The notes under the pieces were generated by a model. It was not told the DNA's origin, ran no database searches, and saw only the letters and a program-made list of their open reading frames with translations. Shown here in pieces: positions 2,938-59,038 of a stretch of DNA of 64,000 nt. Position 1 is the stretch's first letter. Each line of letters begins with the position of its first letter. A program made the position numbers and the translations under genes. Location: the IMG/VR virus record IMGVR_UViG_3300025867_000005, one strand, 5' to 3'. This stretch comes from a virus. Taxonomy: Duplodnaviria > Caudoviricetes.

Positions 2938-3185
2938 ACTATAATGTCTATGTCGTCAAGAACAGTAGAATCGTCGTGACATGGTGCAGAAATTGTGAAA
3001 AAGCGAAAAGATTGAAAAATGCGTTCTGTTTGCTCAGCAAAGTTGTTCAGAAAAAAGAAGACGTATTTAAGAAGTTAACTTCTAATACTAATCACAAAAC
3101 CAGATTTAACGGGAATGTCATTGATGATTCCTGCATATTTGCTGTAGGATTTACATTCAGACTATGGAATAAGAAAAATGGCTAG
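2907..3185 (+). CDS. Hypothetical protein
   Basis: Fills the gap between co-oriented genes; start uncertain. Confidence 0.35.
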   Translation: MDCGKTRCALNYNVYVVKNSRIVVTWCRNCEKAKRLKNAFCLLSKVVQKKEDVFKKLTSNTNHKTRFNGNVIDDSCIFAVGFTFRLWNKKNG

Positions 3186-4128
3186 ATTCGGATTTTACAC
3201 AGATTCACATATTACCGAAAACCGTCCGGTACACCGCACGGATGATTATGTCAATACTATCCCTGAAAAGATAGAAATGATTTATGATTTCGCCGCACAG
3301 AATGACTTTGACTTTATGACATTCGGAGGAGACCTTTGCGACAGATATCAAATCTTTTCCTATCCCGTCATTAACAGGGTCATCAAGGCAATCAATCTCA
3401 CCACATATGCCTGTATCGGAGAACATGACCTATACGGACATGCTCCAGAAACCTTCAGCGGTTCAGCGTTATCATTTATCTGTAACTATTGCCATAATTT
3501 CCGGATATTGTGGCAACCCGTACATCTGGAAAACGGAATCTCCATATATGCCAAACACGAATGGGAGACAATGGAATCAGCAGCCAAGACTGAAGTTGAC
3601 AAGTCACGGTTTAATGTCTTGCTTTGTCACGAATTGTTATACAATAAGAAGATGCCTTTCGGGATAATAGACACTAAGGATTTGGATTTGCCTTTTGATC
3701 TTGTGTGTTCAGGGGATTTGCATTGCGGATATACTACGCACAAGGTTAAAAACACATGGTATTGTAATCCTGGAAGTCTGGCTAGAAAAACTACGGCTGA
3801 TGCGAAAAGAATGCCGAAATTACTGATGATAGATGCCGTCAAGGGTAAAGAACCAGGCATTCGCGAAATTATCGTTCCGAGGTCAAGACCGGGTAATGAA
3901 GTTTTCTCTGTCGGTATTTCTGAAACGGTTAAGAAACTGATTTCAGAAATGGATATCAGCGGAGTCGTAGATTCGATTAATGAAACCACTAACCTTAGTA
4001 GAGATGAACACACTGACATCTTTGAACTCTTCCAACAGCATTCTCAACAAGTGAAGATTCCGGATAAAGTGCTTGAATACTACAAAGAAGTCTGTGAACG
4101 CATAAACAAAGAGAAGGCAAAGAAATGA
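3178..4128 (+). CDS. SbcD/Mre11-like metallophosphoesterase nuclease
   Basis: TDSHI, GGDL, GEHD, CHE, SGDLH, NPGSL motifs. Confidence 0.82.
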   Translation: MARFGFYTDSHITENRPVHRTDDYVNTIPEKIEMIYDFAAQNDFDFMTFGGDLCDRYQIFSYPVINRVIKAINLTTYACIGEHDLYGHAPETFSGSALSFICNYCHNFRILWQPVHLENGISIYAKHEWETMESAAKTEVDKSRFNVLLCHELLYNKKMPFGIIDTKDLDLPFDLVCSGDLHCGYTTHKVKNTWYCNPGSLARKTTADAKRMPKLLMIDAVKGKEPGIREIIVPRSRPGNEVFSVGISETVKKLISEMDISGVVDSINETTNLSRDEHTDIFELFQQHSQQVKIPDKVLEYYKEVCERINKEKAKK

Positions 4129-5024
4129 AGACTTATTATGATCTGTCTACTTGCTATAGCATTACAGTAGATGACGGGGAAATCATTAAGGTCAGCAATA
4201 AAAGACTTTTCAAGTACGATGTTGCCTTGACGTATACCGAAGAAGAAAAGGTCAAGTACGGAAGTTTTGGAACCGCTATGTATTCTGGTAGACAGGGAAA
4301 GCAATATGTAGAATACATCAACACGTTTTTGGTAGACAGTAGCGGAGGCAGCCAGAAGGTTGATATATTAAGCGGTAGCGCGATTTGCAGTATTACCCAG
4401 CCTGATATATCAGTTTTAAAAGAACTCGGTGTACCGGCTTTCTGGACGAACTTGACAGACTTCATGCCGATATTTGGATACGTGTGTTTTCATGAAAAGT
4501 TGGCCCCGATGCATTCTTATTTTGAATCCAAGGCACAGCCGTTAGAAGAATCCGAATACAAGAAAGTTGCAGAAGTCTTGGATTTTCTTCCTGGTGATGA
4601 TATCGGGCAACTTGCGCAATACCTTCTTCACGGCGGCATTGCCTATAACGGAATAATGGAATCTGTTCTACCCAATCCTTTCTATGGCAAGACGCTTTCT
4701 CTTTTGCCGCTTTCTAAACCGACAGGAAAACAAACGGTTCTGATTACCAGAGATATGTTTCAGAACAAAGTTACGAAAGACCATTTTGTCAATGAATTGG
4801 CAACTTATTGTCCTGTTTCTGTGACTTTAGATGAAGAACAGAAAAAGATTTTCGGTGATTTTGAAAACCTAAGCTTTTATTGTGGAACCTACCCTCAATA
4901 TCTGTCTTCTTTTTGGGGACTTATAACCAAGTTGTCAGACTCTAAGGTCGGATATGTGTTCTCTTATGACATGCCTTATGCCGTTGTCGCTGGCACTAAT
5001 ATGATCGGACAAAAACAAATCTAA
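4125..5024 (+). CDS. Hypothetical protein
   Basis: 299 aa ORF, ATGA-coupled to the upstream gene; no motif recognised. Confidence 0.7.
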   Translation: MKTYYDLSTCYSITVDDGEIIKVSNKRLFKYDVALTYTEEEKVKYGSFGTAMYSGRQGKQYVEYINTFLVDSSGGSQKVDILSGSAICSITQPDISVLKELGVPAFWTNLTDFMPIFGYVCFHEKLAPMHSYFESKAQPLEESEYKKVAEVLDFLPGDDIGQLAQYLLHGGIAYNGIMESVLPNPFYGKTLSLLPLSKPTGKQTVLITRDMFQNKVTKDHFVNELATYCPVSVTLDEEQKKIFGDFENLSFYCGTYPQYLSSFWGLITKLSDSKVGYVFSYDMPYAVVAGTNMIGQKQI

Positions 5025-5070: not shown

Positions 5071-6834
5071 ATGAATAATGAAATATACCCCGAATCCTGC
5101 GTCGACAGGCTGGAAAATTGCAAGAAAATCCTTATCGTCAAGCCGAATAAAGAATACGACGGTTCAAAAGAACTGAAAGAAATGTGCATTGACAAAAGGG
5201 AAGTCAGTTTCACCTATCCTAAACCCGATGTCGATTTAGTTTCAGAAGCATATGCCAGTGGCGCTGATCTCGTGATACAAATCGGAAGCAGACAGACAAG
5301 GAAACTGCGGTATTATGAAGGCATGGATGACACTCTTAGGAAAGACATTTTCAACTGTGTAGAAGATAAATTCTTCAATTACCACCACCATGATGAATAC
5401 AGTTGGCGGGATGCTCTTGAAACAGTCGGGCGTTATGACAAAGAAACGAAGAAATGGAAGGGACTGGCAGGTCTTCTATTGGCGCAAAACCGCAAGTTTA
5501 TGTCAGTCACGAATCACGGCGGCATCGCCGGATGGATCAAACAGAGTCAGGTCTGTGATGAAACAGGAATCAAACCTATCTATGGGCTAGAGGCATACTA
5601 TAGCAATTACAGAGGTGAAGACCCGGAACAGAAGAAGTTAAACAGAAGTGCAAACCATCTTATTCTTCTAGCTAAAAACATCGAAGGCTATTACAACATC
5701 ATCAAGATACACAATGACGCTCAACTCAATGGATTCTACTACAGCCCGAGAACTTGTGATGAGGCTTTAAAGAAATACGGGAAAGGAATTGTAGCGACTT
5801 CAGCATGTTTTGCTGGAGAATTAGCCCAGTTGGTGATGGCAGACAAATGGGAAGAGGCGAAAGAAAGATACCGGTTCTATGAATCTTGTTTCGACAAGTT
5901 CTTTATCGAAATCCAATTGATCGAGATGAAGGAACAAAAAGAAGTAAACAGAAGGCTGATCAAGCTTGCCGGAGAAGTCGGGGCAGAACTGACAATCGGC
6001 ATTGACAGTCATTATCTCTATCCTGAACATAGTGAAACCCATGAATTGATGATGTGTATCCGTCAAGGAAGGACTATTCAAGACCTTCAGAAAGAAGATG
6101 ATGATACTTGGAAATTCACGGTAAAGAATCTGTTCTACAGGAACTATGAACAAATCCTTGACTTGTTCACAACCGGATTTATAGACAATGAAGGCGAGCA
6201 TGTGGAACCATACGAAGACGATGTTTTTACAATGGAGGTCTTTGAAAAGGCTTGTCAAAACACCAGATGGATAGCCGTCAACTGTGAAGATTATAAAATC
6301 GACAAGTCAATCAAGCTCCCGAAGCTGTATGATAACAGTGAAGAAGTTTTGTCTAAAATGGCATGGGAAGGTTTCAAAAGAAAAGGGTTCGATATCCAAC
6401 CAGATCCTAAAACCTATTCTGAACGTTTAGAATATGAATTGGATGTCATCTGTTTGGCGGGTTGGGCAGACTATTTCCTTATCACGAAAATGATAGTGGA
6501 TAAGGCTATCGAATTGAGAGGTGAATGGGGAACCGGAATAGGGCGCGGGTGTTTTGTTCCTTGGAACAGGGTAATTACAGAGAACAAAATACCAGTATTT
6601 ATATCTGATGTTAAAATCGGTGAATTTGTGTATTCGCATGACGGAACACTTAATGAAGTAATTGACAAATTTATTTATGATGTAAAAGAAGAATTAATAG
6701 AAATTGAAACTGAAGATGGAAGAAAAATCAATTGTACTTTAAACCATAGAATTCTTGTAACAAGGAACCAAAAAGAAGAATGGGTAGAAGCTCAAAACCT
6801 ACTAGAAGGAGATGATATCGTAGATCTTTTTTGA
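5071..6834 (+). CDS. dnaE: DnaE piece 1: PHP domain and start of palm, fused to N-terminal split-intein half
   Basis: YHHHDEYS, VTNHG, IKPIYGLEAY, HLILLAKN, TSACFAGE, DSHY, YSERLEYELDVI...DYFLI, GIGRG|CFVP. Confidence 0.92.
   Translation: MNNEIYPESCVDRLENCKKILIVKPNKEYDGSKELKEMCIDKREVSFTYPKPDVDLVSEAYASGADLVIQIGSRQTRKLRYYEGMDDTLRKDIFNCVEDKFFNYHHHDEYSWRDALETVGRYDKETKKWKGLAGLLLAQNRKFMSVTNHGGIAGWIKQSQVCDETGIKPIYGLEAYYSNYRGEDPEQKKLNRSANHLILLAKNIEGYYNIIKIHNDAQLNGFYYSPRTCDEALKKYGKGIVATSACFAGELAQLVMADKWEEAKERYRFYESCFDKFFIEIQLIEMKEQKEVNRRLIKLAGEVGAELTIGIDSHYLYPEHSETHELMMCIRQGRTIQDLQKEDDDTWKFTVKNLFYRNYEQILDLFTTGFIDNEGEHVEPYEDDVFTMEVFEKACQNTRWIAVNCEDYKIDKSIKLPKLYDNSEEVLSKMAWEGFKRKGFDIQPDPKTYSERLEYELDVICLAGWADYFLITKMIVDKAIELRGEWGTGIGRGCFVPWNRVITENKIPVFISDVKIGEFVYSHDGTLNEVIDKFIYDVKEELIEIETEDGRKINCTLNHRILVTRNQKEEWVEAQNLLEGDDIVDLF
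6550..6831 (+). mobile_element. Split intein N-half (94 aa) of dnaE
   Basis: Begins with Cys (CFVPWNRV) directly after GRG; block B CTLNH; ends WVEAQNLLEGDDIVDLF then stop. Confidence 0.9.
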
Positions 6835-6883
6835 TTTTGGCCTCTATGCTTAGATAGTGGTAGTATTTAAAAGGAAGCTTTAC

Positions 6884-8410
6884 ATGGGGAACGTTTATCA
6901 CAGAATAGAAGATGTGCCAGAATGGATTCGTCCTTTCATTGAAGAACGTACAATAAAAAGCATAGATGTCAGAACGAACAAGAATGTAGAATACAAATAT
7001 TTCGGGAAACTACCGATTCCTATAAACGAAATGCTAATTCATGAAAATGAATTGAATAAACATTTGAAGTGGGATGTGTCTGGTACGTGTTATAGTTGTG
7101 GAAATCATTTTGTTACGACTTGGAATTCACTTTTAGCAAGAAAGAAACATGCAAAAGAAGAATTCTGTGGTAAATGTCTTCGAAAGGAACAATTTACTGA
7201 AGAATGGCGGCGGCATAATTCAGAAGCTCAGAAAAAAGTGCAAGGCACACCAGAAGCTAGACGTAAAATGTCTGAAATTTTGAAAGAAGTACATCGAAAA
7301 GACCCAGAAATAAGAAAAAGGATTGGAGAATCTTTACGTCGTGGATACAAAGAACATCCAGAAAGAAGAGAAAAAGTTTCTGAAGACTTAAGAAAACGCT
7401 GGAAGGATGCCGAAGGTCAGCAGAAGTTTATGGGACGTGGATTTTATTATGGATGGGTATTTACAAGGTGTGGAAGAATCTTTTTTGCTAGTTCTTGGGA
7501 ATTGATGTTTCTTTTATGGTGTGACAATAACACGGAAGTTTGTTCTTTCAAAAGGTGTACGGATCATGTTCCTTACAAAACGACATTAGGGAAACCCTCA
7601 AACTATTATCCAGATTTCGAAATGGAAATTGGTGGAACTCAATATGTCGTGGAAATCAAAGGAAATCTTTCTGAATTTGAAACAGTTCAACGTAAAAAAG
7701 AGGCAGCAGAATCTTTTTATTTTGGCAATAAAAGATATATTATTCTTTACAAGGCTGACTTGGAAAGAATGGGAATTCTAAAGTATAACAAAAAAGTAGA
7801 ACTTTGGATTTCTGAACTTTGTGATTCTAATAAAATCGAATGTTGTGGTTTCGGCAAGTTTAAGAACACCAAAAGCTTCGAAAATTATCTCGCGAATAAA
7901 TTATCCGAAAGGAAAGAAAAGCAGCGGATAAAAGAAGAGAAAAAACACAAAATGCGTCTTGATGTTAAGTGCCCTGAGTTACTCTTACAGTGGAACTACA
8001 ACAAGAATGATAAAGGTCCAGACTTTTATCCATATTGGTCTTCGGAAAAGGCATGGTGGATTTGTTCAGACTGCGGGAATGAATGGAAACAAACAATTTC
8101 TAGCAGGACATGCACGCCCATAAGAAATTCTTGTCCAGTTTGTGCCAAAAAGAGGTTACGGAAGGAAATGTCAGAAAGATCCAAAAGGATGTCTTTAATA
8201 CGTTTCGGTCAGAAAAATCTTGAAGAAGAAAGACTAAAGTACATTAACGAAATTAAGCGTCAAATTTCTGAGACAGGAATCGTTCCGACAAGGGAAGAAT
8301 TTTTAATGAAATCAAAAATGTCGTTTGTTTATTTGTATAAAATTTTCGGGGCTTATAACTTATTAGTAGAAGAATCAGGATTTACTCCAAGAAAAAGAAA
8401 GAGAGAATAG
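6884..8410 (+). mobile_element. Free-standing putative homing endonuclease between the dnaE split-intein halves
   Basis: NUMOD3-like repeats (PEARRKMSE, PEIRKRIGES, PERREKVSE); TnsA-N-like SSWE...YYPDF...VEIKG nuclease core; Zn ribbon (WWICSDCGNEW...CPVC). Confidence 0.78.
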
Positions 8411-8650
8411 ATGTCTAAAATTAAATCGTTAAAAAAGATGGAATATAATGGGAAAGTATATGATTTGTGTGTTAGGAATACGCACACATACAATATAGAA
8501 GGATTAGCGGTACATAATTCAGCCGGTGGGTCATTAGTTTCGTTTTGTACGGGTATTACAGATATTGACCCGATCAAGTACGATCTTCTGTTCGAACGTT
8601 TTCTTGATTTTAGCCGAAGTGAAATCAAGGTCAATGGATTTGAAGCCTAA
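8411..8650 (+). CDS. dnaE: DnaE piece 2: 36 aa C-terminal split-intein half plus 43 aa DnaE C-extein
   Basis: MSKIKSLKK...VYDLCV...[10 protein letters not shown]|[33 protein letters not shown]. Confidence 0.92.
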
Positions 8651-8653
8651 TAC

Positions 8654-8682
8654 TTGACAGTCGTGTTCTTAAATGCTAAAGT
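8654..8682 (+). promoter_or_regulatory. sigma70-type promoter with extended -10
   Basis: TTGACA-17 bp-TAAAGT preceded by TGc. Confidence 0.65.
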
Positions 8683-8709
8683 GTTTGTCAACTTGAAAGG
8701 TGTAAAAGA

Positions 8710-9576
8710 ATGAATGTTTTGTCCTTGTGCGATGGAATTAGTTGCGGTAGGCTTGCTCTGCAACGGGCAGGTCTAAATGTCGAAAGATATTTTAGTTCTG
8801 AAATTGACAACAATGCGATTGCAATTTCCGAAAAGAACTGGACTGATCAAATCAGGTTGGGTGATCTTAATCTGATTACTCATGAACTAATTGATTCTAT
8901 GCCACAAATAAACCTTGTGATGTTCGGAAGTCCATGTCAGAGTTTTTCACGTCTTGGGAAACAAGAAGGCTTTGATGGGAAATCTGGGCTATTTCATATC
9001 TGTCAAAGAATACTTTCCTATATCCAATCGAAGAATACAGACGTGAAGTTTCTCGTGGAAAACGTAGATATGAAAGAAGAATGGAAGGACATAATCTCTT
9101 CCAAGCTTGGTGTTAGCCCTATTAAAATAGACAGTCGTCTACTTTCTCCTGCTAAACGCAAACGCATTTACTGGACGAATATCAAAACCGATATTCCACA
9201 AGAACTAGGTTTGACATTCGATGACATTAATGATGGTTCTCAAAACTGGATTGACGATAATATTATTCGTAAAATTGAGGCATGGAAAGCACAACAAAAA
9301 CCCCTTAAAAATGCTGTTGTTATCGGCGCTAAACAAAAGCTTCCTTGTTTAACCGCAAGAGGATATAATCAGTACCATTCTGGTATGATTCTTATTACTG
9401 ATGGAAACGGAAGGTATCGGTATTTAACGAACCTTGAAGGTGAACGGGCAATGACACTTCCGGACGGATACACAGATGCTTTTACCGGAAAGCAATCAGA
9501 CAAATTTCGTAGTCATGCTATCGGAAACGGCTGGACTGTAGACGTGATCGCCCATATCCTAAAAGGAATCAAGTAA
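8710..9576 (+). CDS. DNA (cytosine-5) methyltransferase
   Basis: LSLCDGISCG, GSPCQ, ENV, RKRIYW, IGNGWTV. Confidence 0.9.
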   Translation: MNVLSLCDGISCGRLALQRAGLNVERYFSSEIDNNAIAISEKNWTDQIRLGDLNLITHELIDSMPQINLVMFGSPCQSFSRLGKQEGFDGKSGLFHICQRILSYIQSKNTDVKFLVENVDMKEEWKDIISSKLGVSPIKIDSRLLSPAKRKRIYWTNIKTDIPQELGLTFDDINDGSQNWIDDNIIRKIEAWKAQQKPLKNAVVIGAKQKLPCLTARGYNQYHSGMILITDGNGRYRYLTNLEGERAMTLPDGYTDAFTGKQSDKFRSHAIGNGWTVDVIAHILKGIK

Positions 9577-10481
9577 TGAATTCATTTGAAGGGATTAACG
9601 TCCTAAGCTTATTTGACGGAATGAGTTGCGGACAGTTGGCACTTAAACGTATCGGAATCATTCCTGACAACTATTTTGCAAGTGAAATCAAGACTGATGG
9701 AATTTCGGTCACTATGTCTAACTTCCCGAATACTAAACAAGTAGGAGATGTCACCAAGCTTGACGGTAAGAGTCTTGGTAAGATTGACCTTCTTATCGGT
9801 GGGAGCCCTTGTCAGGATCTGTCAATTGCGACGCATGACAGAACGGGTCTGTCAGGAATTAAGTCGAAGCTTTTCTACGAATATGTCAGGCTTCTTAAAG
9901 AGACGAATCCGACCTATTTCCTTCTTGAAAACGTCGTGATGAAGCCACAGTGGGTTAAAACTATCAGCCTTTACCTGAAGACAGTGGAACCCCACAGGAT
10001 CAATTCTGATTTGGTAAGCGCTCAAAATAGGCCAAGACTTTATTGGACGAATCTTATCGCCACTGAAATTCAAGACAAGAGGATTGCTCTCAAAGACATC
10101 CTTACTGACTTTCCTAAACGTTGCTACCGTTGGCTAAGCAAGGTACAATTACAGAAGCTAGAGAACAAAGGATACCGTTATCAAAGCATGTACCGGGTTC
10201 TAAGCCCTGAAGAAAAGGCTGGATGTGTAAGCGCAAGCGGGTTCTGTAATAGCCAAGACAACAAAGTCAGGATCGGAGATGGAATCAGATATCTTACCAA
10301 TGAAGAAAACGAAAGGCTTCAGACTCTGCCATATGGCTATACTAGCGGCATTCCAGAATCAAAAAGGAAACACTGTATCGGCAATGGATGGACGGTGGAT
10401 GTCATCGCCGAATTCTTTAAGAAAATCGGGATGGAAGTCTATAAACAAGAAGAAATGTTCAGACTTGAAGAACTGAACTAA
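9576..10481 (+). CDS. DNA (cytosine-5) methyltransferase, tandem paralogue
   Basis: LSLFDGMSCG, GGSPCQ, ENV, QNRPRLYW, IGNGWTV. Confidence 0.9.
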   Translation: MNSFEGINVLSLFDGMSCGQLALKRIGIIPDNYFASEIKTDGISVTMSNFPNTKQVGDVTKLDGKSLGKIDLLIGGSPCQDLSIATHDRTGLSGIKSKLFYEYVRLLKETNPTYFLLENVVMKPQWVKTISLYLKTVEPHRINSDLVSAQNRPRLYWTNLIATEIQDKRIALKDILTDFPKRCYRWLSKVQLQKLENKGYRYQSMYRVLSPEEKAGCVSASGFCNSQDNKVRIGDGIRYLTNEENERLQTLPYGYTSGIPESKRKHCIGNGWTVDVIAEFFKKIGMEVYKQEEMFRLEELN

Positions 10482-10493
10482 ACGAGGAATAAA

Positions 10494-11537
10494 ATGATCA
10501 AAACTACACCTCTATATTCTTTTTCAGATATCGTGATGTTACCAGCGGATGTGTCTCGTGTTTTAAGCAGAAGCCAGTGTAACGTATATCTGCCGAACGG
10601 GAAGTTGCCATTGATTACGGCCCCCATGTTCAGCGTAATCAACGAAAACAATGCGTCGCTGTTTGTCAGCAATGCCATTCATGCTTGTTTGCCAAGGACA
10701 AGCAGGGATAAGTGGCTTGGAAAAACAGAAGAATGGATGATTCAAAGCTACGGGATGGATGAGTTTTTGTCCGTCATTCAGGAATGGAAGGATGACAAGG
10801 AAAAGCATTATGCCCTTATTGACATCGCCAACGGCCACATGCGAAAACTTATGGATGCCGTTAGGGAAGCAAAAACCAAGCTAGGCGACAGGTTATGGCT
10901 AATGGTTGGAAATGTTGCTCTACCTGAAACTTACGTGATTCTCTCGCAAGACGGAGCGGATGCCGTACGTTTGGGTATCGGGACTGGGAACGCATGCATC
11001 ACAAGCTGCAATTCTAGTATTCACTATCCATTAGTTTCTCTAATCGAAAGTTGTTACCGTGAAAAGATCCGTTTGGGATTGAATTCAGAAATCATCGCTG
11101 ATGGAGGCTTTAGCAATTTCGACCAGATTATCAAGGCAATCGGATTGGGAGCCGATAAGGTAATGTGTGGAAATCTTTTCAACAGGGCACTACAAAGCGC
11201 AGGGAAAACTACCGTTAAGGGAACCGATTGCGTAGTTGACCAGTATTCAGAGGAAATCAAACAGGCTTTCAAGAACGGTCTGGAACTCGAAAAAGAGTAT
11301 TACGGAATGTCCACGAAGAGGGCTCAGCGGGAAATGGGACATGAAACCCTTAAGACGAGTGAAGGCATTGTCAAGATTAATCGCGTAGAATACACATTAG
11401 GACAGTGGACGGAAAACTTTAAGCACTACCTTTCGACAGCTATGTCTTATACAGGAAAAACAAATTTGAATGATTTCCGTGGTAGGGTTGATTTTAATGT
11501 CGTTACACCACAGGCATTTCAGGCGTTTATAAAGTAA
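10494..11537 (+). CDS. guaC: GMP reductase / IMPDH-family protein
   Basis: ITAPM, IDIANGH, GIGTGNACIT (catalytic Cys), IIADGG, YYGMST, SEG; no CBS domains. Confidence 0.8.
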   Translation: MIKTTPLYSFSDIVMLPADVSRVLSRSQCNVYLPNGKLPLITAPMFSVINENNASLFVSNAIHACLPRTSRDKWLGKTEEWMIQSYGMDEFLSVIQEWKDDKEKHYALIDIANGHMRKLMDAVREAKTKLGDRLWLMVGNVALPETYVILSQDGADAVRLGIGTGNACITSCNSSIHYPLVSLIESCYREKIRLGLNSEIIADGGFSNFDQIIKAIGLGADKVMCGNLFNRALQSAGKTTVKGTDCVVDQYSEEIKQAFKNGLELEKEYYGMSTKRAQREMGHETLKTSEGIVKINRVEYTLGQWTENFKHYLSTAMSYTGKTNLNDFRGRVDFNVVTPQAFQAFIK

Positions 11538-11547
11538 GGAAAAATCT

Positions 11548-11874
11548 ATGCAGGTGATAATTCGTGAACAGAAGAACATCTTTGAATACATGGAAAAGTA
11601 TTTGAAAGAAGCGAAACTTTTAGTCGGACGGAAGAGAATTGATTTTGTCTTTCTGGAACTGAGTCTTCCTAATACCTGCACTTTAGTTATTGATGGAGAA
11701 GAATTCGAAACCACTAGAAGATTCTATTACAGAGAGGGAAAGTGTTTTTATGACATCTTTTGTTGGTTGGCGGATGAACTCCATTCGGAAATAAGAGCTT
11801 TCCCGAATGATTTTACAATTGAAGAAATGAATGCGTTTATCCTGTTACACGGGATGAAGGAGAAAGATTTATGA
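11548..11874 (+). CDS. Hypothetical protein
   Basis: RBS; part of an overlapping gene chain. Confidence 0.6.
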   Translation: MQVIIREQKNIFEYMEKYLKEAKLLVGRKRIDFVFLELSLPNTCTLVIDGEEFETTRRFYYREGKCFYDIFCWLADELHSEIRAFPNDFTIEEMNAFILLHGMKEKDL

Positions 11875-12080
11875 CATGCAGCGAGTGTAATTCCGAAATC
11901 CCCAATGAGAAAGAGACGCATATGGAAAACGGAGATGTCCTGTGTCCAAAATGTCTTCTATCAGAAAGCGAAGACGAAGTTAAAAAGATTACCTCTTCAA
12001 TTTGTTCCGGACAGTGCCGTGAAGAAGAAGAATTCCGTGAAATAGAATTTATCATTCAAAGGAACGTAAGAGTTTTATGA
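11871..12080 (+). CDS. Small Zn-finger-like protein
   Basis: CSEC...CPKC; ATGA overlap. Confidence 0.55.
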   Translation: MTCSECNSEIPNEKETHMENGDVLCPKCLLSESEDEVKKITSSICSGQCREEEEFREIEFIIQRNVRVL

Positions 12081-12322
12081 CTGACACAATGACACCGAAA
12101 CAGTTTGCGTTGAATAGGCTTTATCGGCTGTTGTCTTATTCGGGGATTAAAAAAGAAGTTTTCTTGAAAGAAAACAGGATAGAGTCTATAGAACAGCAAA
12201 CAGGTCTTGACTTCGCGGAAACAATGTGTTTGGTATCAGACAGGCTAGATATCGACGTAGATTATTTCTTCGACAGATTCAGACTTGAAAAAGGAGAAGC
12301 GAAATGGACATTCAAAGCGTAA
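12077..12322 (+). CDS. Hypothetical protein (possibly HTH-like)
   Basis: ATGA overlap; C-terminal LDIDVDYFF resembles the end of an XRE HTH. Confidence 0.5.
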   Translation: MTDTMTPKQFALNRLYRLLSYSGIKKEVFLKENRIESIEQQTGLDFAETMCLVSDRLDIDVDYFFDRFRLEKGEAKWTFKA

Positions 12323-12600
12323 GCTGGGAAAGATTCAACGAAATCGTTAAATCAGCAGATCAAATTCTTGTTACCTCAAACTTGTTTGCATGTGGTGAAG
12401 AAGAATACCGTTTTTGGACTTTCTTAGACAATTTCAGCGATAATGTTGAACTTCAATTCATGGCGACGGACAATGATGAATTTTTCATCATCGGAAAACA
12501 GGAAGTTTCTTATGACGGGGATTACTATTCCTGTAAATGTGATGATTCAGTATTCAAGATGAAGTTCAACAAAGTTACGACAACCCCGATTCTCCCTTAA
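12304..12600 (+). CDS. Hypothetical protein
   Basis: aggag RBS. Confidence 0.6.
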   Translation: MDIQSVSWERFNEIVKSADQILVTSNLFACGEEEYRFWTFLDNFSDNVELQFMATDNDEFFIIGKQEVSYDGDYYSCKCDDSVFKMKFNKVTTTPILP

Positions 12601-12604
12601 AAAA

Positions 12605-12820
12605 ATGGAAAACCAAATAACTATAGCGGACTTGATCAAACATCTTCAGACCTTCCCTCAAGATGTACCCATATTCTGGTATCATGATGAAAGCGGAACT
12701 TACGGTCAAAGAATAGAAATGCCAGGCAAATTTGAAGATGTCAAGTGGAATGAAAAATGGAATTGCTGGCGGGATGCTTTTGAAGAGAGTTCCAGCACGA
12801 AAAAGGTTTTTGTAATATGA
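12605..12820 (+). CDS. Hypothetical phage protein
   Basis: TIADLIKHLQTFPQD start, typical of small phage proteins. Confidence 0.6.
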   Translation: MENQITIADLIKHLQTFPQDVPIFWYHDESGTYGQRIEMPGKFEDVKWNEKWNCWRDAFEESSSTKKVFVI

Positions 12821-13368
12821 GACCCAAGTGGACGGCGCAGCAAGTTGAAATCGCCGTTATCAATCATTTTAATCCAAGAAGAAACCTTATAGTCTCAAAT
12901 GTCAGTTGGGGCTTGTTCGCTTATCATGAGGCCGATCTAGTTATCCTTTCTCCATATAACTGTGGAACAGAAGTTGAAATCAAGGTAACTGCGGCTGATA
13001 TCAAAGCAGACCTTAAGAAAAGACACGGGCATAAGGAAGAAATAATCAGAGATGTCTGGTTCGCCGTACCAGAAGAATTGGCCGATGATCCTAACATCCC
13101 TTCTTATGCAGGCATCATAGCCGTCAAGAAGTGGAAAACTAGAAGTGGTAAACAAAGGTATTCTTGTGTCAGGAAAAGGTTGCCGGTAAAGAACAAAGAT
13201 TTTCGCAAGTTTACAGAAGCAGAAAGGCAGAAGCTTCTCAGACTCGGTTGTCTAAGGATTGTCGGACTGAAAGAAAAGCTGGATGACAAGTCTAACAAAA
13301 TTGATGAACTTAAACAGCGTATCCGGGAGCTTGAACTAAAGAAGGAGACAAAATATTTTGAAGACTGA
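12817..13368 (+). CDS. MmcB-like PD-(D/E)XK nuclease-fold protein
   Basis: EADLVIL...EVEIKVTAADIKAD..K.H; WFAVP. Confidence 0.6.
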   Translation: MRPKWTAQQVEIAVINHFNPRRNLIVSNVSWGLFAYHEADLVILSPYNCGTEVEIKVTAADIKADLKKRHGHKEEIIRDVWFAVPEELADDPNIPSYAGIIAVKKWKTRSGKQRYSCVRKRLPVKNKDFRKFTEAERQKLLRLGCLRIVGLKEKLDDKSNKIDELKQRIRELELKKETKYFED

Positions 13369-13684
13369 AAGAGACAGGATGTTCCAGGTTGATTCTAAAA
13401 TCAGACAGAACAAACTGGATGATAAGACACGTAGGGAAAACAGAAACCGTAAAGTAAGTTATCTATTGACAGACAAGGTTGAATGTAGGATTGAAGTCTT
13501 AGACGGAATTTGTGAAGAAGGAAAAGAAGAAACAAGAATCTGGGGAAGTCAAATTGTTTTGGAAACGGATGAAGGAACGATTACAACAGTTGTCCGTGGA
13601 AAGACAAAGAATAGCGCAGAAGTTCTGACCCGTACTTTCTTAGACAAAATGGGCGTAAGGTACAAAATCACGAGAGGAAGTTAG
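13358..13684 (+). CDS. Hypothetical protein
   Basis: TTG start with aggag RBS. Confidence 0.5.
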   Translation: MKTERDRMFQVDSKIRQNKLDDKTRRENRNRKVSYLLTDKVECRIEVLDGICEEGKEETRIWGSQIVLETDEGTITTVVRGKTKNSAEVLTRTFLDKMGVRYKITRGS

Positions 13685-13687
13685 AAT

Positions 13688-14341
13688 ATGTCAAACGGTT
13701 TATTCATTTCATTCGAAGGGCCGGAAGGCGGCGGTAAATCCACCATGCTGAAGAGAACAGCAGAATGGCTAATTGGACAGGGTAAGGAAGTTCTTTGCAC
13801 TAGAGAACCTGGAGGGACGAAACTCGGGGATTATATCCGCGACATGCTGAAACATGACAGCTGCGGTGAAAGTCCTACAAATGCTACTGAAGTTCTTCTT
13901 TTCCTTGCGAGTAGGGCGCAGCATGTAGACACCGTGATTGAACCTGCTTTGCTGACAGGGAAGATTGTCCTGTGTGACAGATTTGAAGATAGCACATTCG
14001 CCTATCAGAGTTACGCGAGAGGGTATGATTTGGGGGTGTTGCAAAATCTTAATTCTTTCGCCACGTCTGGGTTCTCACCAAGCATCGTTCTGATCTTTGA
14101 TATCGGTTTGGAAGATTCTCTAAAAAGGATGAAAAAGCGTCAAGCCATTACAGAAACGACAGCAGACAGAATCGAAATGGCCGGAAATGATTTTCACCAG
14201 AAGGTCAGAAACGGTTTTCTAAGCCTTCAGAAGGAAGATCCAGAACATAAATTCTTGATTGATGCAAGCCTTGAAGAAGAATTGGTTTGGGAACAAGTCA
14301 AAAAAGTCCTTACGGATAAAATACAACACAGGAGTCACTGA
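13688..14341 (+). CDS. tmk: Thymidylate kinase
   Basis: FISFEGPEGGGKST, TREPGGT, LLFLASRAQ, CDRFEDSTFAYQ, DRIE. Confidence 0.95.
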   Translation: MSNGLFISFEGPEGGGKSTMLKRTAEWLIGQGKEVLCTREPGGTKLGDYIRDMLKHDSCGESPTNATEVLLFLASRAQHVDTVIEPALLTGKIVLCDRFEDSTFAYQSYARGYDLGVLQNLNSFATSGFSPSIVLIFDIGLEDSLKRMKKRQAITETTADRIEMAGNDFHQKVRNGFLSLQKEDPEHKFLIDASLEEELVWEQVKKVLTDKIQHRSH

Positions 14342-14716
14342 AATGAGTGAAGATAATGAAGGTTTCTTAAAGATGTCCCATAGTTTGACTATCACTGTGG
14401 ATGGAAGAGTTGTCTTACATTCATCTATCGGAAGCAATCCTGATACCGAAAGCCAGCTTTGCGAAGTTCTTGAAGAACTGATTGCTTTCATGAAAGCGCC
14501 AAAAACGGAAATAACTAACCTTTAACGCGCCTTCGTCGATTCGTTATTATTTTTAGAAAAGGAGAACAAGAATGAAAACTAGAAACATGAAAGTGCTGGA
14601 ATTAACTGATGAAGATGTCGTGCCTAAACGGAATAACATTCAGGTTTCAGAATCAGGGAAACAGGAATCAGAAGCGGAAGTTATTCTTTTCAAAGGATAC
14701 GTACTGAAGAACGTAT

Positions 14717-14986
14717 ATGGACCTAGAAGCGTTTACCCGGCGATGGCATAATCTATTAAACAAGGGAACAGACATGGAAATTACAACAAAAAACGGATGG
14801 AAGCTTGAAATCAATGATAGCCAAGAAGCTAAAGACGAAGTTTTCCAGATCATTATTGATTGGATTAAAAAGTATGATGCTTTCAGTTGGGAAACGATTG
14901 GGCAAGACGATGACTGTCAAATATATGCCATAGACTGTCTCGGGCCTATTGTAGACAAGATTGTCAAAATGAAAGAATCAGACTAG
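14717..14986 (+). CDS. Hypothetical protein
   Basis: ORF track; start uncertain. Confidence 0.5.
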   Translation: MDLEAFTRRWHNLLNKGTDMEITTKNGWKLEINDSQEAKDEVFQIIIDWIKKYDAFSWETIGQDDDCQIYAIDCLGPIVDKIVKMKESD

Positions 14987-15003
14987 TCTTGGATAATTGA
15001 ATG

Positions 15004-15045
15004 AAAAGTGGGATCGGTGTAAAAGCTGGTCCCACTTTCTATTTT
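15004..15045 (+). terminator. Intrinsic terminator upstream of the dnaE catalytic gene
   Basis: aaagtgggatcgg / ctggtcccacttt stem plus T tract. Confidence 0.6.
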
Positions 15046-15065
15046 CAGAGAGACAAGGAAACATT

Positions 15066-17549
15066 ATGAAATACCCAAACATCGAGACGATTAAGCAGAT
15101 TTGCGATCCGTTGGTTTCAGGACTAGGTAATGACTATCAGCAAAGATACAATGATGAACTTAAGGATTTGAAAAAGTGGGTTTTGTTTGTTCAGACAGAC
15201 AAGGCTAAAGAAATCCTTGAAATGAGAAACAATCCACCTAGCGAAACCAACAAGTCTGGAAGTCTGATCCTTTGGCTTTTGGGGATAAGCAGTGTTGACC
15301 CTATAAAAAACGGGATTCCTACCGCAATGAAGAAATTCGGCAAGGCGGACCCTCCTGATATCGACATGGATTTGATGCCGGATGTCAGAAATGAAGTCAA
15401 AGCTTTCCTTGTGGAAAAATTCGGGCAGTCTCGCGTCTGTAGCGTCGGCACCGTAGGCACCTACAAGACGAAGAACGTTATCCTGGACGTTGCTAGGGCG
15501 CTTGGATTGGACGTTAAAGAAGCGATGGAAGTTACGAAGAATCTTGATGCGGAAATCGGTGGAGAAGAAGATGGTGACGAAGACACAAAGCTTGACAAAG
15601 CAGGGTTTGATGAAATCTGCAAGGCACAGTCGGAACTTGCCAATTACTTTGAAAAATATCCTGAAGTGAGGGAACATGCTGAAATATTGAGGAATCAGGC
15701 TAAGAATTTCGGGACACATGCCGGAGGCGTAATCATTTCAAATCTTGATTTGACGGAGAAAATCCCTGTATATCGGGACAAAGAAGGTCGTGTCGTCAGC
15801 TCTTGGTCGGAAAGCGGAGAAAAACAGGAATTGTCCAGCCAGGGCTATATAAAATTTGACGTTTTAGGCCTTTCTAACTTGCCGATTATTAATGATACTA
15901 TACGTTTGATTAAGGAAAACCGTGGGATTGATATCCACAGGAAAGACATTCCGATTGATGATCATGAATCTATCAAGATGGGAACCCGTGGGGAGCTTCT
16001 AGGAATCTTCCAATTTGAGAACCCGTATACTAAAAAGATCGCCGACAAGGTAGGATGTGATAGTTTGGGAGATATTGCCGCTATTACGTCATTGATTCGC
16101 CCTGGACCTAAAGATGTCGGTCTAGATGTCGAATATGCTGAGCGTAAGAGCGGGAAAGAATATGATAAGAACGTCATCCTTGATAAAGTGATGGGAAACA
16201 CATACGGGGTTTTAACTTATCAGGAACAGCTACAATTGCTTGCAATCCATATGGCGGGAATGACTCCATTGGAAGCCAACAGACTCAGGAAGGGCGCGTC
16301 TAAGAAGAAAAAAGACATCATGGATGAACTAAAGCCGAAGTTCATTCAGGGATCTATCGAAAAGTGTGTCAAAACCGGAATCATGACGGAAGAACAGGTC
16401 AACAAAATTTGGGACATGATCGAATCAACAGCGTCTTATAGCTTCAACAAAAGTCACGCTTACGCATATTCCGCCATTACTACAACAGAAATATGGTTAA
16501 GATATCATTACTTCTATGAGTATATGACAGCTTTGCTTCAGAACAGTGATCCGAAGAAGGAAAAATTCGGGACCACGATCTTTGACAAGTATGTTAAATT
16601 CGCGATAGACAAGGGGATGGTTGTCCACAAGCCAAGCATTAATGAATCCCGTGTTGAATTCCGTCTTGAAGGTAATGACCTTTGGTATGCCCTTGGACAT
16701 GTAAAGAATGTCAGCAACAGCGCCCGCGCGATTGTCAAACACCAACCTTATGCAAGTCTGGAGGACTTCTATAATCGCTGTACGGTTGAAGTCGGGACGG
16801 AAGGTAAAACAAGAAGACCGAATACCAGAGTCGTAGAAAGTCTAATCTACGCAGGAGCCTTTGATTGTTTCGGAGACAGAGAAACGGTTTTCAAGAATTT
16901 CTATGAATTAACTGACAGGGTGGAGAAATGGAAACTACCGAAAGCTCATCCTTGTCTAAAAGCAGGTATCGGACATGTTGAGATTCTACCTGAAGGTGTG
17001 GAGATCAGTGCCTCTAATCTTTCGAAAAATCTTTGCAAGATCCGTAAGACGAAATCCGTTGTTGTCGATCAAGAGATAGAAAGCCGTAGGGTGTTGAATT
17101 ATGACAGCACACTGAAATACATTGATCTTCCGGCATTGGATCAAAAGACCTTAGATGAGATGGAGAAGGAAATGCTAAGCGTCAGGCTTTCGGACAACAT
17201 CTATTCGAAATACAGGAAACAGACAAGGGAAGTCAAGGGGCTTTGCAGCTATACGACAGCAAAGCTGGAAACAGAGAAAACCAGAATTAAAGTTCTGGGT
17301 GAAATCATGGGGATCAAAGAAGTCAATTTCAAATCAGGAAGTCAGGGGTTGAGGGTCTATATCAGTGACGGAAACAAAGAAATGAATTTCCTTGTGTTTT
17401 CAAGTGCCGTCATGCTTTTCAAAGACCATTTCCAAGAAGGAGATATTGCCGTCATTCCGTTGCGTAATTTCGGGCAGGATTCTGAAGACAAAACATTCAG
17501 ATTCTATGATGATAGAGAAACGGGATTCGTTTTGAAAAGGGAAGACTGA
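15066..17549 (+). CDS. dnaE: DnaE piece 3: catalytic palm/thumb/fingers, HhH and OB-like C-terminus; no PHP domain
   Basis: PPDIDMD, GTHAGGVII, KFDVLGL, GIFQFE, RPGP, TYGVLTYQEQL, YSFNKSHAYAY, PSINES, LIYAGAFD. ATG at 15066 after aagga RBS. Confidence 0.94.
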   Translation: MKYPNIETIKQICDPLVSGLGNDYQQRYNDELKDLKKWVLFVQTDKAKEILEMRNNPPSETNKSGSLILWLLGISSVDPIKNGIPTAMKKFGKADPPDIDMDLMPDVRNEVKAFLVEKFGQSRVCSVGTVGTYKTKNVILDVARALGLDVKEAMEVTKNLDAEIGGEEDGDEDTKLDKAGFDEICKAQSELANYFEKYPEVREHAEILRNQAKNFGTHAGGVIISNLDLTEKIPVYRDKEGRVVSSWSESGEKQELSSQGYIKFDVLGLSNLPIINDTIRLIKENRGIDIHRKDIPIDDHESIKMGTRGELLGIFQFENPYTKKIADKVGCDSLGDIAAITSLIRPGPKDVGLDVEYAERKSGKEYDKNVILDKVMGNTYGVLTYQEQLQLLAIHMAGMTPLEANRLRKGASKKKKDIMDELKPKFIQGSIEKCVKTGIMTEEQVNKIWDMIESTASYSFNKSHAYAYSAITTTEIWLRYHYFYEYMTALLQNSDPKKEKFGTTIFDKYVKFAIDKGMVVHKPSINESRVEFRLEGNDLWYALGHVKNVSNSARAIVKHQPYASLEDFYNRCTVEVGTEGKTRRPNTRVVESLIYAGAFDCFGDRETVFKNFYELTDRVEKWKLPKAHPCLKAGIGHVEILPEGVEISASNLSKNLCKIRKTKSVVVDQEIESRRVLNYDSTLKYIDLPALDQKTLDEMEKEMLSVRLSDNIYSKYRKQTREVKGLCSYTTAKLETEKTRIKVLGEIMGIKEVNFKSGSQGLRVYISDGNKEMNFLVFSSAVMLFKDHFQEGDIAVIPLRNFGQDSEDKTFRFYDDRETGFVLKRED

Positions 17550-18991
17550 TGCCGAAACAAAGAATTTACATAGAAGAAATTGAACTTGAGAATTTTGAGA
17601 GCCACGAATACACGGTTTTTAAGAATTTCAGTCAGGGTTTCAACTGTATCGCCGGATTGTCTGATGTCGGGAAAACAAGTGTAATCCGTGCGATCAAGCT
17701 TTGTGCCTATAATTGCTTTGACCAAAAGATGGTAAGGGTCGGTGCTGAGTTTTGTAGGGTTAAAATAACTACTAATATCGGAAGCGTGGAAGTTAAAAAA
17801 GGTCCTGGTTGTAATTTGTGGGTGATCAAGAGAAAAGACACCGTTGGGGAAATCAAACTGGACAAGGTGGGCAAAGCAGAAGTCAAACAGGCATGTGATG
17901 TTCTCGGAATGAAAATAATCACGCTTGGGGAGACAGAAGTGCCGATCAATATTATGGATCAGTTGGAACGGCATTTCTTTATTGACGGAATCGGAGATAA
18001 GAAGACGACTGGTTCCAGCAGGGCAGAAATCATCGATGAAATCTGCGGGCTTAACGGAGCCGAAGAATTGATAAGGGCAATCAGCCTAGACCAATATCGT
18101 TTGACAAGGGAAATCACTGAAGCCGAAAACAGGATGAAAGAACTTGAAGGGAAGATATATAGCGAGACTGACATTTTGCGGGATCAGATGCTTCTTGCCA
18201 AAGTGGAAAAGCTTGAAGAAGAAATCGGTTCTTGCGAATCGAATATTTCCTTCATGAATCAGTTATTTTCTTCATATGAAGAAAAGACAAATGAAATTTC
18301 TTCTCTTTTCTCCAAGATTGATGGAATCCAGATAATTTGTCGTGCTGAAGCATTATTGACGGAACTCATAGAAAACTTGTCTGTATACCGTAAAATAGAA
18401 GCTTTATGGAATACATATTCTCAATCATTGCAGAAGATTGAAGAACTGAAAAAATCTGTTTCCGACATGCCGGATATAGATGAAACACTTCTTGCTGATG
18501 TTAGGGATTCGACTTCAAAAAGGATACGGGTTTCTTCTTTGTTCGAAAAGTATACAGCGGATAATGAGAAGATTCAGGAAATTTCCTTTAAGTTGTCAGG
18601 GATGCCGGATATTGAAAGTCTGACAGATTGGACAATCAAAGATGATATTTTGTCTTCCCGGAAACTAGGTGAAGCCTTTAGGAAATATGAAGACTTGTTG
18701 TTGAAACTAGCTGACGTGAATACAAGACTACTTTCTGTAGATGTTGTGGAAGCCGCCGAAAACCATATCCGTGGTTTGGGTTTGGTTTCTGACAGGCAAA
18801 AGCTTTCTGGCTATTTGGATTCATACGGCATGATGTGCGGCAAGCTAAAATCCCTTCTTGGAGACTTGTCAAAAACAGAAGAAAACCTTTGTAATGCGGA
18901 AAACAAACTTAAGGAAATCTATCGTGATATTACGATATGCCCGGTGACAAAACTTCCTATAGGGAACACATGCAGCTTAGTCGGTAAATGA
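17549..18991 (+). CDS. SbcC/Rad50-like ATPase, N-terminal half only
   Basis: LENFESH, Walker A GLSDVGKTS, Q-loop (MDQ), long coiled coil ending at CPVT; no signature or Walker B. Confidence 0.8.
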   Translation: MPKQRIYIEEIELENFESHEYTVFKNFSQGFNCIAGLSDVGKTSVIRAIKLCAYNCFDQKMVRVGAEFCRVKITTNIGSVEVKKGPGCNLWVIKRKDTVGEIKLDKVGKAEVKQACDVLGMKIITLGETEVPINIMDQLERHFFIDGIGDKKTTGSSRAEIIDEICGLNGAEELIRAISLDQYRLTREITEAENRMKELEGKIYSETDILRDQMLLAKVEKLEEEIGSCESNISFMNQLFSSYEEKTNEISSLFSKIDGIQIICRAEALLTELIENLSVYRKIEALWNTYSQSLQKIEELKKSVSDMPDIDETLLADVRDSTSKRIRVSSLFEKYTADNEKIQEISFKLSGMPDIESLTDWTIKDDILSSRKLGEAFRKYEDLLLKLADVNTRLLSVDVVEAAENHIRGLGLVSDRQKLSGYLDSYGMMCGKLKSLLGDLSKTEENLCNAENKLKEIYRDITICPVTKLPIGNTCSLVGK

Positions 18992-58358: not shown

Positions 58359-58384
58359 CAACCGAGATTAGTCTATGATATATT
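58355..58384 (+). promoter_or_regulatory. sigma70-type promoter
   Basis: TTGACA-18 bp-TATATT with TGa extension. Confidence 0.6.
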
Positions 58385-58415
58385 GACGGCATTCCAACAG
58401 GAAAGGACTTACAAC

Positions 58416-58988
58416 ATGAAAATTGACAGATTTCCGACAGCAGAAGAAGGTTTTAAATTGACTCCGTGCGTTATCGCCGGTGTTGATTGTTTTCTCATTG
58501 GACCCTTGGACATCAAAACAAAATTCAATGAGAGTAACAAGATTTTCCGTTCCAGCATTTGGACGGCTGACGGCTATCCCGTAAGTCTGGGTTTCCGCAA
58601 GTTTACGAATTACGGCGAAGCCCCTGCCTTCGAACCGTTTGATGTCAACAAAGATGACATGACATTCGTCACGAAGAAAGACGGAACATGTTGTGATGGC
58701 AACACCAGAATTGAAACAGAAGATGGTATAAAAACCATTCAAGAAATCTGCGAAGGTCGGTATTTGGGTCGGGTTTTAGGATATGATCATTCCAATAACC
58801 AGATTAAGTTTACGAAGGTTGTTGCACATTCCGTTAAGTCGAACAAAAACGACTGGTTCCTTTTAACCTTAGAGGATGGGACAGAAGTAAAACTAACTGG
58901 CTCACACTTGGTTTGGCTTCCTGAGTTATCTTGTTATCGTCGGGTTGATCAGCTTAAAGGCGATGAAGAAATTCTGATGTCAAAATAG
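58416..58988 (+). CDS. Rnl1-type RNA ligase N-part fused to split-intein N-half (99 aa, 58689-58985)
   Basis: SLGFRKFTNYGE...TKKDGT|CCDGNTRIETEDG...LTGSH...RRVDQLKGDEEILMSK*. Confidence 0.85.
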   Translation: MKIDRFPTAEEGFKLTPCVIAGVDCFLIGPLDIKTKFNESNKIFRSSIWTADGYPVSLGFRKFTNYGEAPAFEPFDVNKDDMTFVTKKDGTCCDGNTRIETEDGIKTIQEICEGRYLGRVLGYDHSNNQIKFTKVVAHSVKSNKNDWFLLTLEDGTEVKLTGSHLVWLPELSCYRRVDQLKGDEEILMSK

Positions 58989-59038
58989 ACTTCATCTATT
59001 TTTGTTGATATTTCCCTTACATAAAGGAGGATATCAAC

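Follow-up and report, generated by a model that had tools for sequence, protein, structure and literature searches.

The three pieces of dnaE

The gene considered here, a dnaE coding for a C-family DNA polymerase, occupies positions 5071-17549 of a 64,000-nucleotide stretch of virus DNA (IMG/VR record IMGVR_UViG_3300025867_000005). This stretch is referred to in the following as the window and constitutes bases 116571-180570 of a 304-kb virus genome rated as complete by CheckV. The gene is dispersed over three pieces, which like every gene of the surrounding region are carried by the + strand (Table 1). Piece 1 ends with a GRG motif that runs directly into the N-terminal half of an intein (IntN), piece 2 consists of the C-terminal intein half (IntC) followed by a short extein, and piece 3, with the PDIDMD and KFDVLG motifs, lies 6.4 kb away behind a terminator. 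This is the layout described in a first-pass annotation made from the letters of the sequence, and all of it is indeed present. The extein of piece 1 ends at G493 (..GIGRG) and the intein begins with Cys494 at nt 6550, and joining pieces 1 and 2 at this predicted junction would give an N subunit of 536 aa containing G491, R492, G493, S494, R520 and R526. The Pol-beta-type palm is accordingly complete but spread, with GRG in piece 1, the Ser in piece 2, and D98, D100 and D265 in piece 3.

Taken together, the three pieces display the domain order and motifs of a full-size C-family polymerase, namely PHP, palm, thumb, fingers, HhH and OB. All nine metal ligands of the PHP domain are present (H105, H107, D114, H149, E174, H196, C246, D312 and H314), and the domain order, the motifs and the nine ligands are shared with unsplit DnaE of phages and bacteria having an active PHP proofreader (for instance M. 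tuberculosis DnaE1, PDB 5lew/7pu7), although there the enzyme is one chain whereas the one described here would be two chains after splicing. In the whole 304-kb genome there are three matches to PF07733 (DNA_pol3_alpha) and one to PHP, which are those of pieces 1-3 only, and no PolA or PolB Pfam domains were found. Since the genome thus holds no other C-family, PolA or PolB match, the three-piece DnaE is the sole recognisable DNA polymerase of the phage. Rfam gave nothing at gathering scores for the whole window, and therefore no group I or group II intron was detected that might rejoin the pieces at the RNA level.

The longest open reading frame (ORF) of piece 3 starts from TTG 14997, a start that was rejected since it would read through the hairpin and T-run preceding the gene, and the real start is ATG 15066.

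Table 1. Coordinates of the dnaE pieces, their parts and the features between them, given as window positions
Feature	Position	Strand	Remarks
Piece 1	5071-6834	+	587 aa; Pfam PHP E 2e-27, DNA_pol3_alpha profile positions 2-65
N-extein of N subunit	5071-6549	+	493 aa: N-terminal extension, PHP, palm-N helices up to ..GIGRG
IntN	6550-6834	+	94 aa and stop; Cys1, block B TLNH; acidic (20 D+E vs 10 K+R)
Free-standing endonuclease-like gene	6884-8410	+	508 aa from ATG 6884, or from GTG 6857; between the intein halves
Piece 2	8411-8650	+	IntC, then Ser and 42 residues; matches Pfam DNA_pol3_alpha positions 65-100
IntC	8411-8518	+	36 aa, ends ..VHN; net basic
C-extein core	8519-8617	+	33 aa; +1 Ser corresponds to the GRGS Ser; GSL..DPI helix-hairpin; R520 and R526 of the predicted spliced protein
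C-terminal tail of piece 2	8618-8650	+	10 aa and stop; left end of splitting cassette
Inter-subunit gene filler	8651-15065	+	room between the N and C subunit genes
Two C5 DNA methylases	8710-9576 and 9576-10481	+	inter-subunit filler
IMPDH/GMP-reductase-like gene	10494-11537	+	inter-subunit filler; one 347-aa ORF
Thymidylate kinase	13688-14341	+	inter-subunit filler, which also has small ORFs
Hairpin (14 bp) and T-run	15005-15048		just 5' of the piece 3 ATG
Piece 3	15066-17549	+	DNA_pol3_alpha positions 68-260; finger E 7e-40; HHH_6 E 6e-16
C-subunit leader	15066-15353	+	96 aa, a decayed palm-N copy; right end of cassette
Polymerase body	15354-17549	+	PDIDMD (D98, D100), KFDVLG (D265), thumb, fingers (..SFNKSHAYAYS), HhH, C-terminal OB fold

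Relatives, structure models and the palm

We consider it likely that the replicative DnaE of this phage is made from three genes, and that a trans-spliced N subunit and a C subunit form one composite catalytic centre. The split intein halves, which are found in the GRG|S codons (6550-8518), would associate and trans-splice to yield the 536-aa N subunit, the +1 Ser of the splice being the Ser of the hG[GS] loop, which is a defining catalytic element of nucleotidyltransferases of the Pol-beta type. Some 35 codons downstream of this site, an older cassette between ..FERFLDFSR and PDID would cut the gene permanently. The N subunit would then supply the PHP proofreader, strand beta1, the GS loop and the FERF..R helix, while the DxD strand, the third Asp, the thumb, the fingers, HhH and OB would come from the C subunit, and the two would assemble non-covalently into one catalytic centre with the tail of the N subunit and the leader of the C subunit as an extra clasp. 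Two selfish insertions would in this manner be repaired in two ways, by trans-splicing for the intein and by subunit association for the cassette.

Relatives were collected by searches with piece 3 and with the extein of piece 1. They fall into three kinds, which are unsplit DnaEs of 1170-1320 aa reading ..GRGSAAGSL.., forms split by the intein only at GRG|S, in which the IntC piece continues past PDID to the end of the polymerase, and two-gene forms like that of the window. The last kind comprises no fewer than 32 N subunits that are encoded on their own without an intein, are 517-549 aa long and have the same end as spliced pieces 1+2, i.e. FERFLDxSR, a tail of 9-10 aa (consensus ..V.C[TS]F[ED][VL]*) and a stop, as well as at least 30 PHP-less C subunits that start with a leader of about 96 aa. 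The first-pass annotation had raised the question whether related phages keep the two-gene break when the intein is absent, and they do so in many lineages; the two-protein split is independent of the intein. Furthermore, the same contig carries both the N and the C gene in every relative fetched, at distances of 2 nt (L011), 15 nt (L013), 350 nt (L010), 1.0 kb (L015), 2.2 kb (L012), 4.4 kb (the 477-kb phage L008) and 6.4 kb (the window and its 208-kb relative), and in L009, where the shared contig is presumed, the N gene is more than 10 kb from the C gene on a 317-kb contig. The two-protein layout is common to dozens of huge phages.

The residues expected at the active site are strictly kept by the N subunits. 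When 35 of these (45-69% identical to the first) are aligned, the nine PHP ligands are invariant, and the same holds for G, R, G, S, the second Ser, L, F, E, R, F and R+6 of the palm segment, of which G, R, G, S, F, E, R, F and R+6 are also invariant in all unsplit forms. The earlier statement that GRGS, FERF and R+6 exist only in spliced piece 1+2 can therefore be extended to the family, since they are invariant in 32-33 stand-alone N subunits and found in none of 30 C leaders. The fragmentation of the gene and its invasion by selfish elements might on the other hand be taken as signs that pieces 1+2 are a decaying second copy of dnaE and that the phage relies on piece 3 and host enzymes. This seems extremely improbable to us. 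The ratio of nonsynonymous to synonymous substitution rates (dN/dS) of the N-extein, measured against the nearest relative of the window, is 0.056, a sign of strong purifying selection. No PHP ligand or palm motif has been lost, both the window and the relative have intact reading frames and intein motifs, and the N and C genes occur together in every relative fetched.

Structure prediction is likewise in agreement with a composite palm. The C subunit is modelled with a DnaE fold at a predicted local distance difference test (pLDDT) score of 85, and Foldseek matches it with E of about 1e-39 to 2hpi, 7pu7 and 3e0d, the matches covering Thermus aquaticus, M. tuberculosis and E. coli alpha; its leader forms three helices and then coil until the PDID strand. 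Modelled by itself, the N subunit is confidently predicted apart from the final 25 residues, which comprise the FERF helix and the tail and have pLDDT values of only 30-43. For the complex, residues 290-534 of the nearest intein-less N subunit (P0126) were combined with residues 1-620 of the C subunit of the window, resulting in an interface score (ipSAE) of 0.83 as compared to 0.00 for the best of three controls; the mark applied to this score is reached by 58 of 80 solved complexes versus 2 of 110 mismatched pairs. The contacts agree by at least 94% between runs, and the partner pLDDT is at least 84. In the model, the N-subunit strand before GRGS (residues 477 and 485) pairs with the C-subunit strand after D102 (residues 103 and 104), the KFDVLG strand is contacted by N-subunit residues 409-411 and 469-473, the FERF helix (N 512-514) contacts the fingers motif of the C subunit (462-466), and residue 530 of the N-subunit tail contacts residue 34 in a leader helix. 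The prediction of this complex had been proposed together with the first-pass annotation, and with P0126 as stand-in it places the N-subunit residues against the active-site strands of piece 3. The model would thus represent the usual DnaE palm sheet composed of two chains, to which tail and leader add a further contact, and as a model it supports binding between the subunits. The claim that the replicase is cut through the palm, with the GS/FERF part and the DxD strand on separate chains, is in addition borne out by the sequence and by the family comparison.

Some relatives have further interruptions in the C subunit. In L013 (2925-6573) it is cut again into a 558-aa ORF with palm and fingers, a 303-aa ORF of unknown family and a 335-aa HhH ORF. 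In the closest relative (P0006, L006:10001-12913) an extra mini-intein of 144 aa (C..SN) follows the residue aligned to K462 and interrupts the fingers motif as FNK|SHAY, and this mini-intein is not found in the C subunit of the window.

The leader and the splitting cassette

The first-pass annotation was right that GRGS and FERF are missing from piece 3, but the region where they would be expected is not blank. Residues 1-96 are a degenerate homologue of the same palm segment, and both this duplicate and the cassette that it borders had been overlooked. Positions 68-100 of Pfam DNA_pol3_alpha are matched twice, by piece 2 and by piece 3, and phmmer aligns residues 58-98 of piece 3 to PGRGS..PDID of solved DnaE chains. 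Homology of the leader to the palm-N segment is furthermore found by profile-profile comparison (E 1.7e-7). The leader of the window has the motifs Y24..R27..E31..W38 and TNKSGSL..LGISSVDPI and is without GRGS, FERF and both Arg, and the consensus of the family over about 96 aa reads Y..R..E..DL..W and [ST]N[KR]SxS[LV].L..G.S..DP. Out of 1.84 billion, 86 cluster representatives are matched by a profile of the leaders, 42 of them at their own N terminus; the other matches are internal, at about 270-480, where unsplit DnaEs have their canonical palm segment. Alignment of 30 C leaders shows that the position of the Ser is Asn in every one, that the Gly has become Thr or Ser, that F391 is gapped in all 30, and that the first Arg is variable and R+6 is Lys in only 8. 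Prolines are found at the place of strand beta1, and N62, S64 and S66 are invariant. Since the dN/dS of the leader between the window and the nearest relative is 0.13 and that of the N-extein is the value given above, both are maintained by selection.

A recent duplication in situ was considered as the origin of the leader and rejected, since the C bodies reach 96% identity to unsplit genes and the leaders only about 31% to the matching segment. As the bodies can be 89-96% identical to unsplit forms while the leaders reach about 31-36%, the leader is an ancient module, which moves or disappears together with the break, and not a fresh local duplicate.

The nature of the break can be seen from the comparison of the split L015 with the unsplit L016, which are collinear at about 80% nucleotide identity except for a 1.33-kb insert in L015. 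The insert sits exactly between ..FERFLDESR and PDID and consists of the tail, the stop, three small ORFs and the leader, and at the insert point the unsplit L016 has only three codons and neither tail nor leader. In a tree of polymerase bodies the unsplit, intein-only and cassette-split forms are intermingled, and well-supported branches force at least 13 changes of split state. The break is thus a discrete insertion of tail, stop, genes and leader that is scattered over the dnaE tree. The window belongs to a clade of seven that are all split and whose stem is long, and because of this the split is taken to be old and fixed in its lineage. One may tentatively go further and imagine that the tail-plus-leader insertion is a self-contained gene-splitting element spreading among the dnaE genes of huge phages. 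Its decayed palm-N copy would serve as a repair kit, either as a clasp or as a placeholder displaced by the N subunit, so that the active site is assembled by two-chain complementation, with a layer of split intein added here; we regard this as possible, if rather doubtful.

The composite enzyme must be weighed against the notion that the C subunit is a self-sufficient polymerase in which the leader replaces palm-N, with the N subunit being a PHP exonuclease or pyrophosphatase accessory that uses GRGS/FERF as a docking module. Several observations weigh in this direction or otherwise against the composite enzyme. The leader is homologous to the very segment that is missing, it folds confidently in the stand-alone model (pLDDT of about 85-94), and it is under purifying selection with N62 and S66 invariant, such that its own loop may have some catalytic or structural role. 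The stand-in P0126 is only 74% identical to the N subunit of the window over residues 290-534, and since whole DnaEs have been solved, the score of the complex may reflect likeness to those structures. Splicing, subunit binding and activity are all things that we infer, and the assignment of E. coli S364, R390 and R396 as triphosphate binders enters as background. With regard to the cassette, no endonuclease gene is recognisable in the N-C gap of the window, L008, L010, L011, L012 or L015, and its mobility is deduced from the scatter over the tree and from one indel comparison. Since an endonuclease gene was found in none of these six, homing of the cassette by way of an endonuclease can only be presumed. 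A self-sufficient C subunit is nonetheless unlikely, since the leader has prolines at beta1, no aligned G[GS], a gap at FERF and no conserved Arg, since the same residues are invariant in N subunits at 45-70% overall identity, and since the catalytic sheet of the model is made of beta1 from the N subunit and the DxD strand from the C subunit. We therefore infer that it is the copy in the N subunit, and not the leader, that serves at the active site.

The split intein, its precedents and its surroundings

The intein of the window has the motifs of class 1, with Cys1 in CFVPW.., TxxH in ..CTLNH.. and HN with a +1 Ser in ..AVHN|S. Matches to Pfam Intein_splicing and Hint are below or near the cut-off, and there are weak PDB matches to inteins including gp41-1. 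The ORF between the halves has Zn ribbons, a PD-(D/E)xK-like core (..PDF..EIKG), a DUF4379 treble clef and an HNH_repeat, which is associated with homing endonucleases, and its TAG stop directly abuts the ATG of IntC. No match to a Vsr, GIY-YIG or HNH catalytic domain was obtained from Pfam, the best being RE_endonuc with E 0.15. No curated nuclease family reached the cut-off for this 508-aa ORF, and the gene moved together with the intein.

The element is likely to be a recently arrived selfish insert. Between the window and the 208-kb relative, only 2 of the 282 nt of IntN and none of the 108 nt of IntC are different. The N-exteins of the same pair are 81% identical in protein with saturated synonymous sites (synonymous divergence, dS, 2.2). 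The tract at approximately 6511-8550 is 98-100% identical to this relative and its flanks about 75%, and identity declines over about 150 nt on the 3' side, as expected of a co-conversion tract. Recent homing is suggested because the tract is nearly identical while its flanks are saturated at synonymous sites. An empty site was likewise found, in a contig from a wastewater metagenome (run X10) that joins 6549 to 8519 without exactly 1969 nt, with flanks that are 90-97% identical, and that extends into the downstream methylase gene. This site coincides with the predicted protein splice junction, and at least 32 intein-less homologues read GRGS there. Filled and empty alleles have both been found, and the intein appears to be mobile at present. 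The GRG|S type of intein is also found in dnaE genes without the cassette, and in some N subunits (P0128, P0138) it is contiguous.

In L014 (5814-7339), a 1-nt indel (window 7111-7170) splits the endonuclease gene into ORFs of 132 and 376 aa, the DNA being otherwise about 100% identical, which may reflect inactivation of one of the copies or an error in one of the assemblies.

Protein splicing itself is predicted from these motifs, and polymerase function should require it, given that the intein sits inside the GS loop and uses the Ser of that loop as its +1 nucleophile. It was hypothesized in the first-pass annotation that replication might be gated by the trans-splicing of the 43-aa extein, so that it starts only when splicing is permitted, and the translational abutment of piece 2 to the endonuclease gene might fit such a function as well. 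A gate is however quite improbable, since the near identity of the element in two phages with saturated flanks speaks for a recent homing event and not for a regulatory function of long standing, since a close relative has the exact empty site and most N subunits of the family are intein-less, and since the same intein allele occurs in dnaE genes of the unsplit type. In addition, no redox or other conditional feature was seen. The gating hypothesis is for these reasons not supported.

Published precedents exist for each of the ingredients, that is for fractured genes, for tails derived from an insertion, and for Pol III alpha modules that are split in jumbo phages. Fractured genes, in which split intein halves flank a free-standing homing endonuclease gene, have been described at a number of loci, three metagenomic DnaE loci among them (Dassa et al. 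2009, PMC2677866). The arrangement of the window shares with them the size ranges of IntN (88-105 aa) and IntC (33-54 aa), a gene between the halves that is here endonuclease-like, the phage-like replication gene as host, and the combination of an acidic IntN with a net-basic IntC. The DnaE insertion points are not given in the text of that paper, so the identity of the GRG|S site cannot be compared. The window differs in that the endonuclease-like gene is without a Vsr or GIY-YIG Pfam match and that the splicing product would be one of two subunits and not the whole polymerase. In cyanobacteria the products of two dnaE genes are likewise joined through a split intein of natural origin (Wu et al. 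1998; Caspi et al. 2003). As far as they are described where cited in PMC2677866, these genes have another insertion site, unlinked loci, no endonuclease gene and an ancient fixed break, and there the whole polymerase is restored.

For the cassette split, the closest experimentally tested analogue is nrdA of Aeromonas phage Aeh1, which is split by mobE and whose halves cannot assemble without the tails derived from the insertion (Friedrich 2007; Crona et al. 2011, PMC3045599). There as here an essential gene is cut by a cassette without intron or intein, new peptides are found on both halves, and the active site is, or in our case would be, rebuilt from two proteins. The tail and leader of the window are likewise cassette-borne and touch each other in the model. 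The host is however a polymerase and not a ribonucleotide reductase, the N-terminal peptide is about 96 aa and is a decayed duplicate of the preceding segment of the target, and no endonuclease gene was found in the cassette of the window and five relatives. It should also be mentioned that a minimal Pol III alpha of group 2.2 jumbo phages is predicted to be split into an N-terminal NTP-binding and a C-terminal Mg/template-binding protein encoded by distant genes (Iyer et al. 2021, PMC7824862), where the part before the DxD strand is called the NTP-binding subdomain. The catalytic module is in both cases divided at the same break point in jumbo phages and into separate genes. Those proteins are however stripped modules accompanying a family B polymerase, whereas the DnaE of the window is full-size and no PolA or PolB was found beside it, and the break lies here within a putatively mobile cassette with an overlap duplicate. 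In the literature searched, we found no full-size DnaE that is split at this place by a cassette with a decayed copy of the target segment, nor the combination of such a split with a split intein 35 codons away.

If the composite enzyme is real, it would show to what extremes an essential enzyme can in nature tolerate damage by selfish elements, its catalytic sheet being made from two polypeptides of which one is first ligated by trans-splicing through an active-site residue. It would as such be a natural test of in-trans complementation of a Pol-beta-type palm. The at least 30 two-piece DnaEs with built-in interaction peptides may be of use in split-enzyme design and in the study of how insertion-derived tails evolve, and the +1 Ser split intein offers an apparently mobile element for which filled and empty alleles are both available. 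For annotation it follows as a warning that PHP-only and PHP-less "DnaE fragments" in huge phages may be subunits rather than pseudogenes or assembly errors.

The order of genes near the split dnaE is conserved in the window, L008, L011, L015 and L016, where a gene for an Mre11/SbcD-like metallophosphoesterase is found two or three genes 5' of the N gene, with one or two unknown genes as well before the N gene; in the window this upstream part lies at 3178-5024. In the window and its closest relative an SbcC/Rad50-like gene (SMC/AAA_23; 17549-18991) is found 3' of the C gene. In L006 (4052-6564) the IMPDH-like gene is in three ORFs (272 aa, 334 aa without a Pfam match, and 222 aa) and is apparently another fractured gene.

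No GenBank phage was matched by the 12.5-kb region in a megablast search, tblastn retrieved only DnaEs of 26-33% identity, and a pattern scan of IMG/VR with piece 3 retrieved nothing. Among sequencing runs, those from activated sludge contain the full stretch and may be its source, and those from landfill, wastewater and groundwater contain parts of it, which where aligned are mainly the intein-endonuclease tract; none of the runs listed as containing it is of RNA. At NCBI the proteins of the closest relative are labelled as belonging to a Paludibacteraceae metagenome-assembled genome, which may point to a host among the Bacteroidota.

Elsewhere in the window, at 58383-60836, there is a second fractured gene. 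An ORF ending ..KKDGT|C.. with an intein N half (58383-58988) is followed by a free-standing 300-aa ORF with a Vsr-like ..GDFWHGNP motif (59039-59941), and the C half of the intein (..ILVHN|CLIVSK) opens the ORF at 59910-60836, with a +1 Cys as opposed to the +1 Ser of the dnaE intein. Furthermore, the upstream RecA gene of a relative (L014:1-272) codes for 1002 aa with matches to Intein_splicing and LAGLIDADG, and the replication and recombination genes of this phage group thus seem to be unusually rich in inteins.

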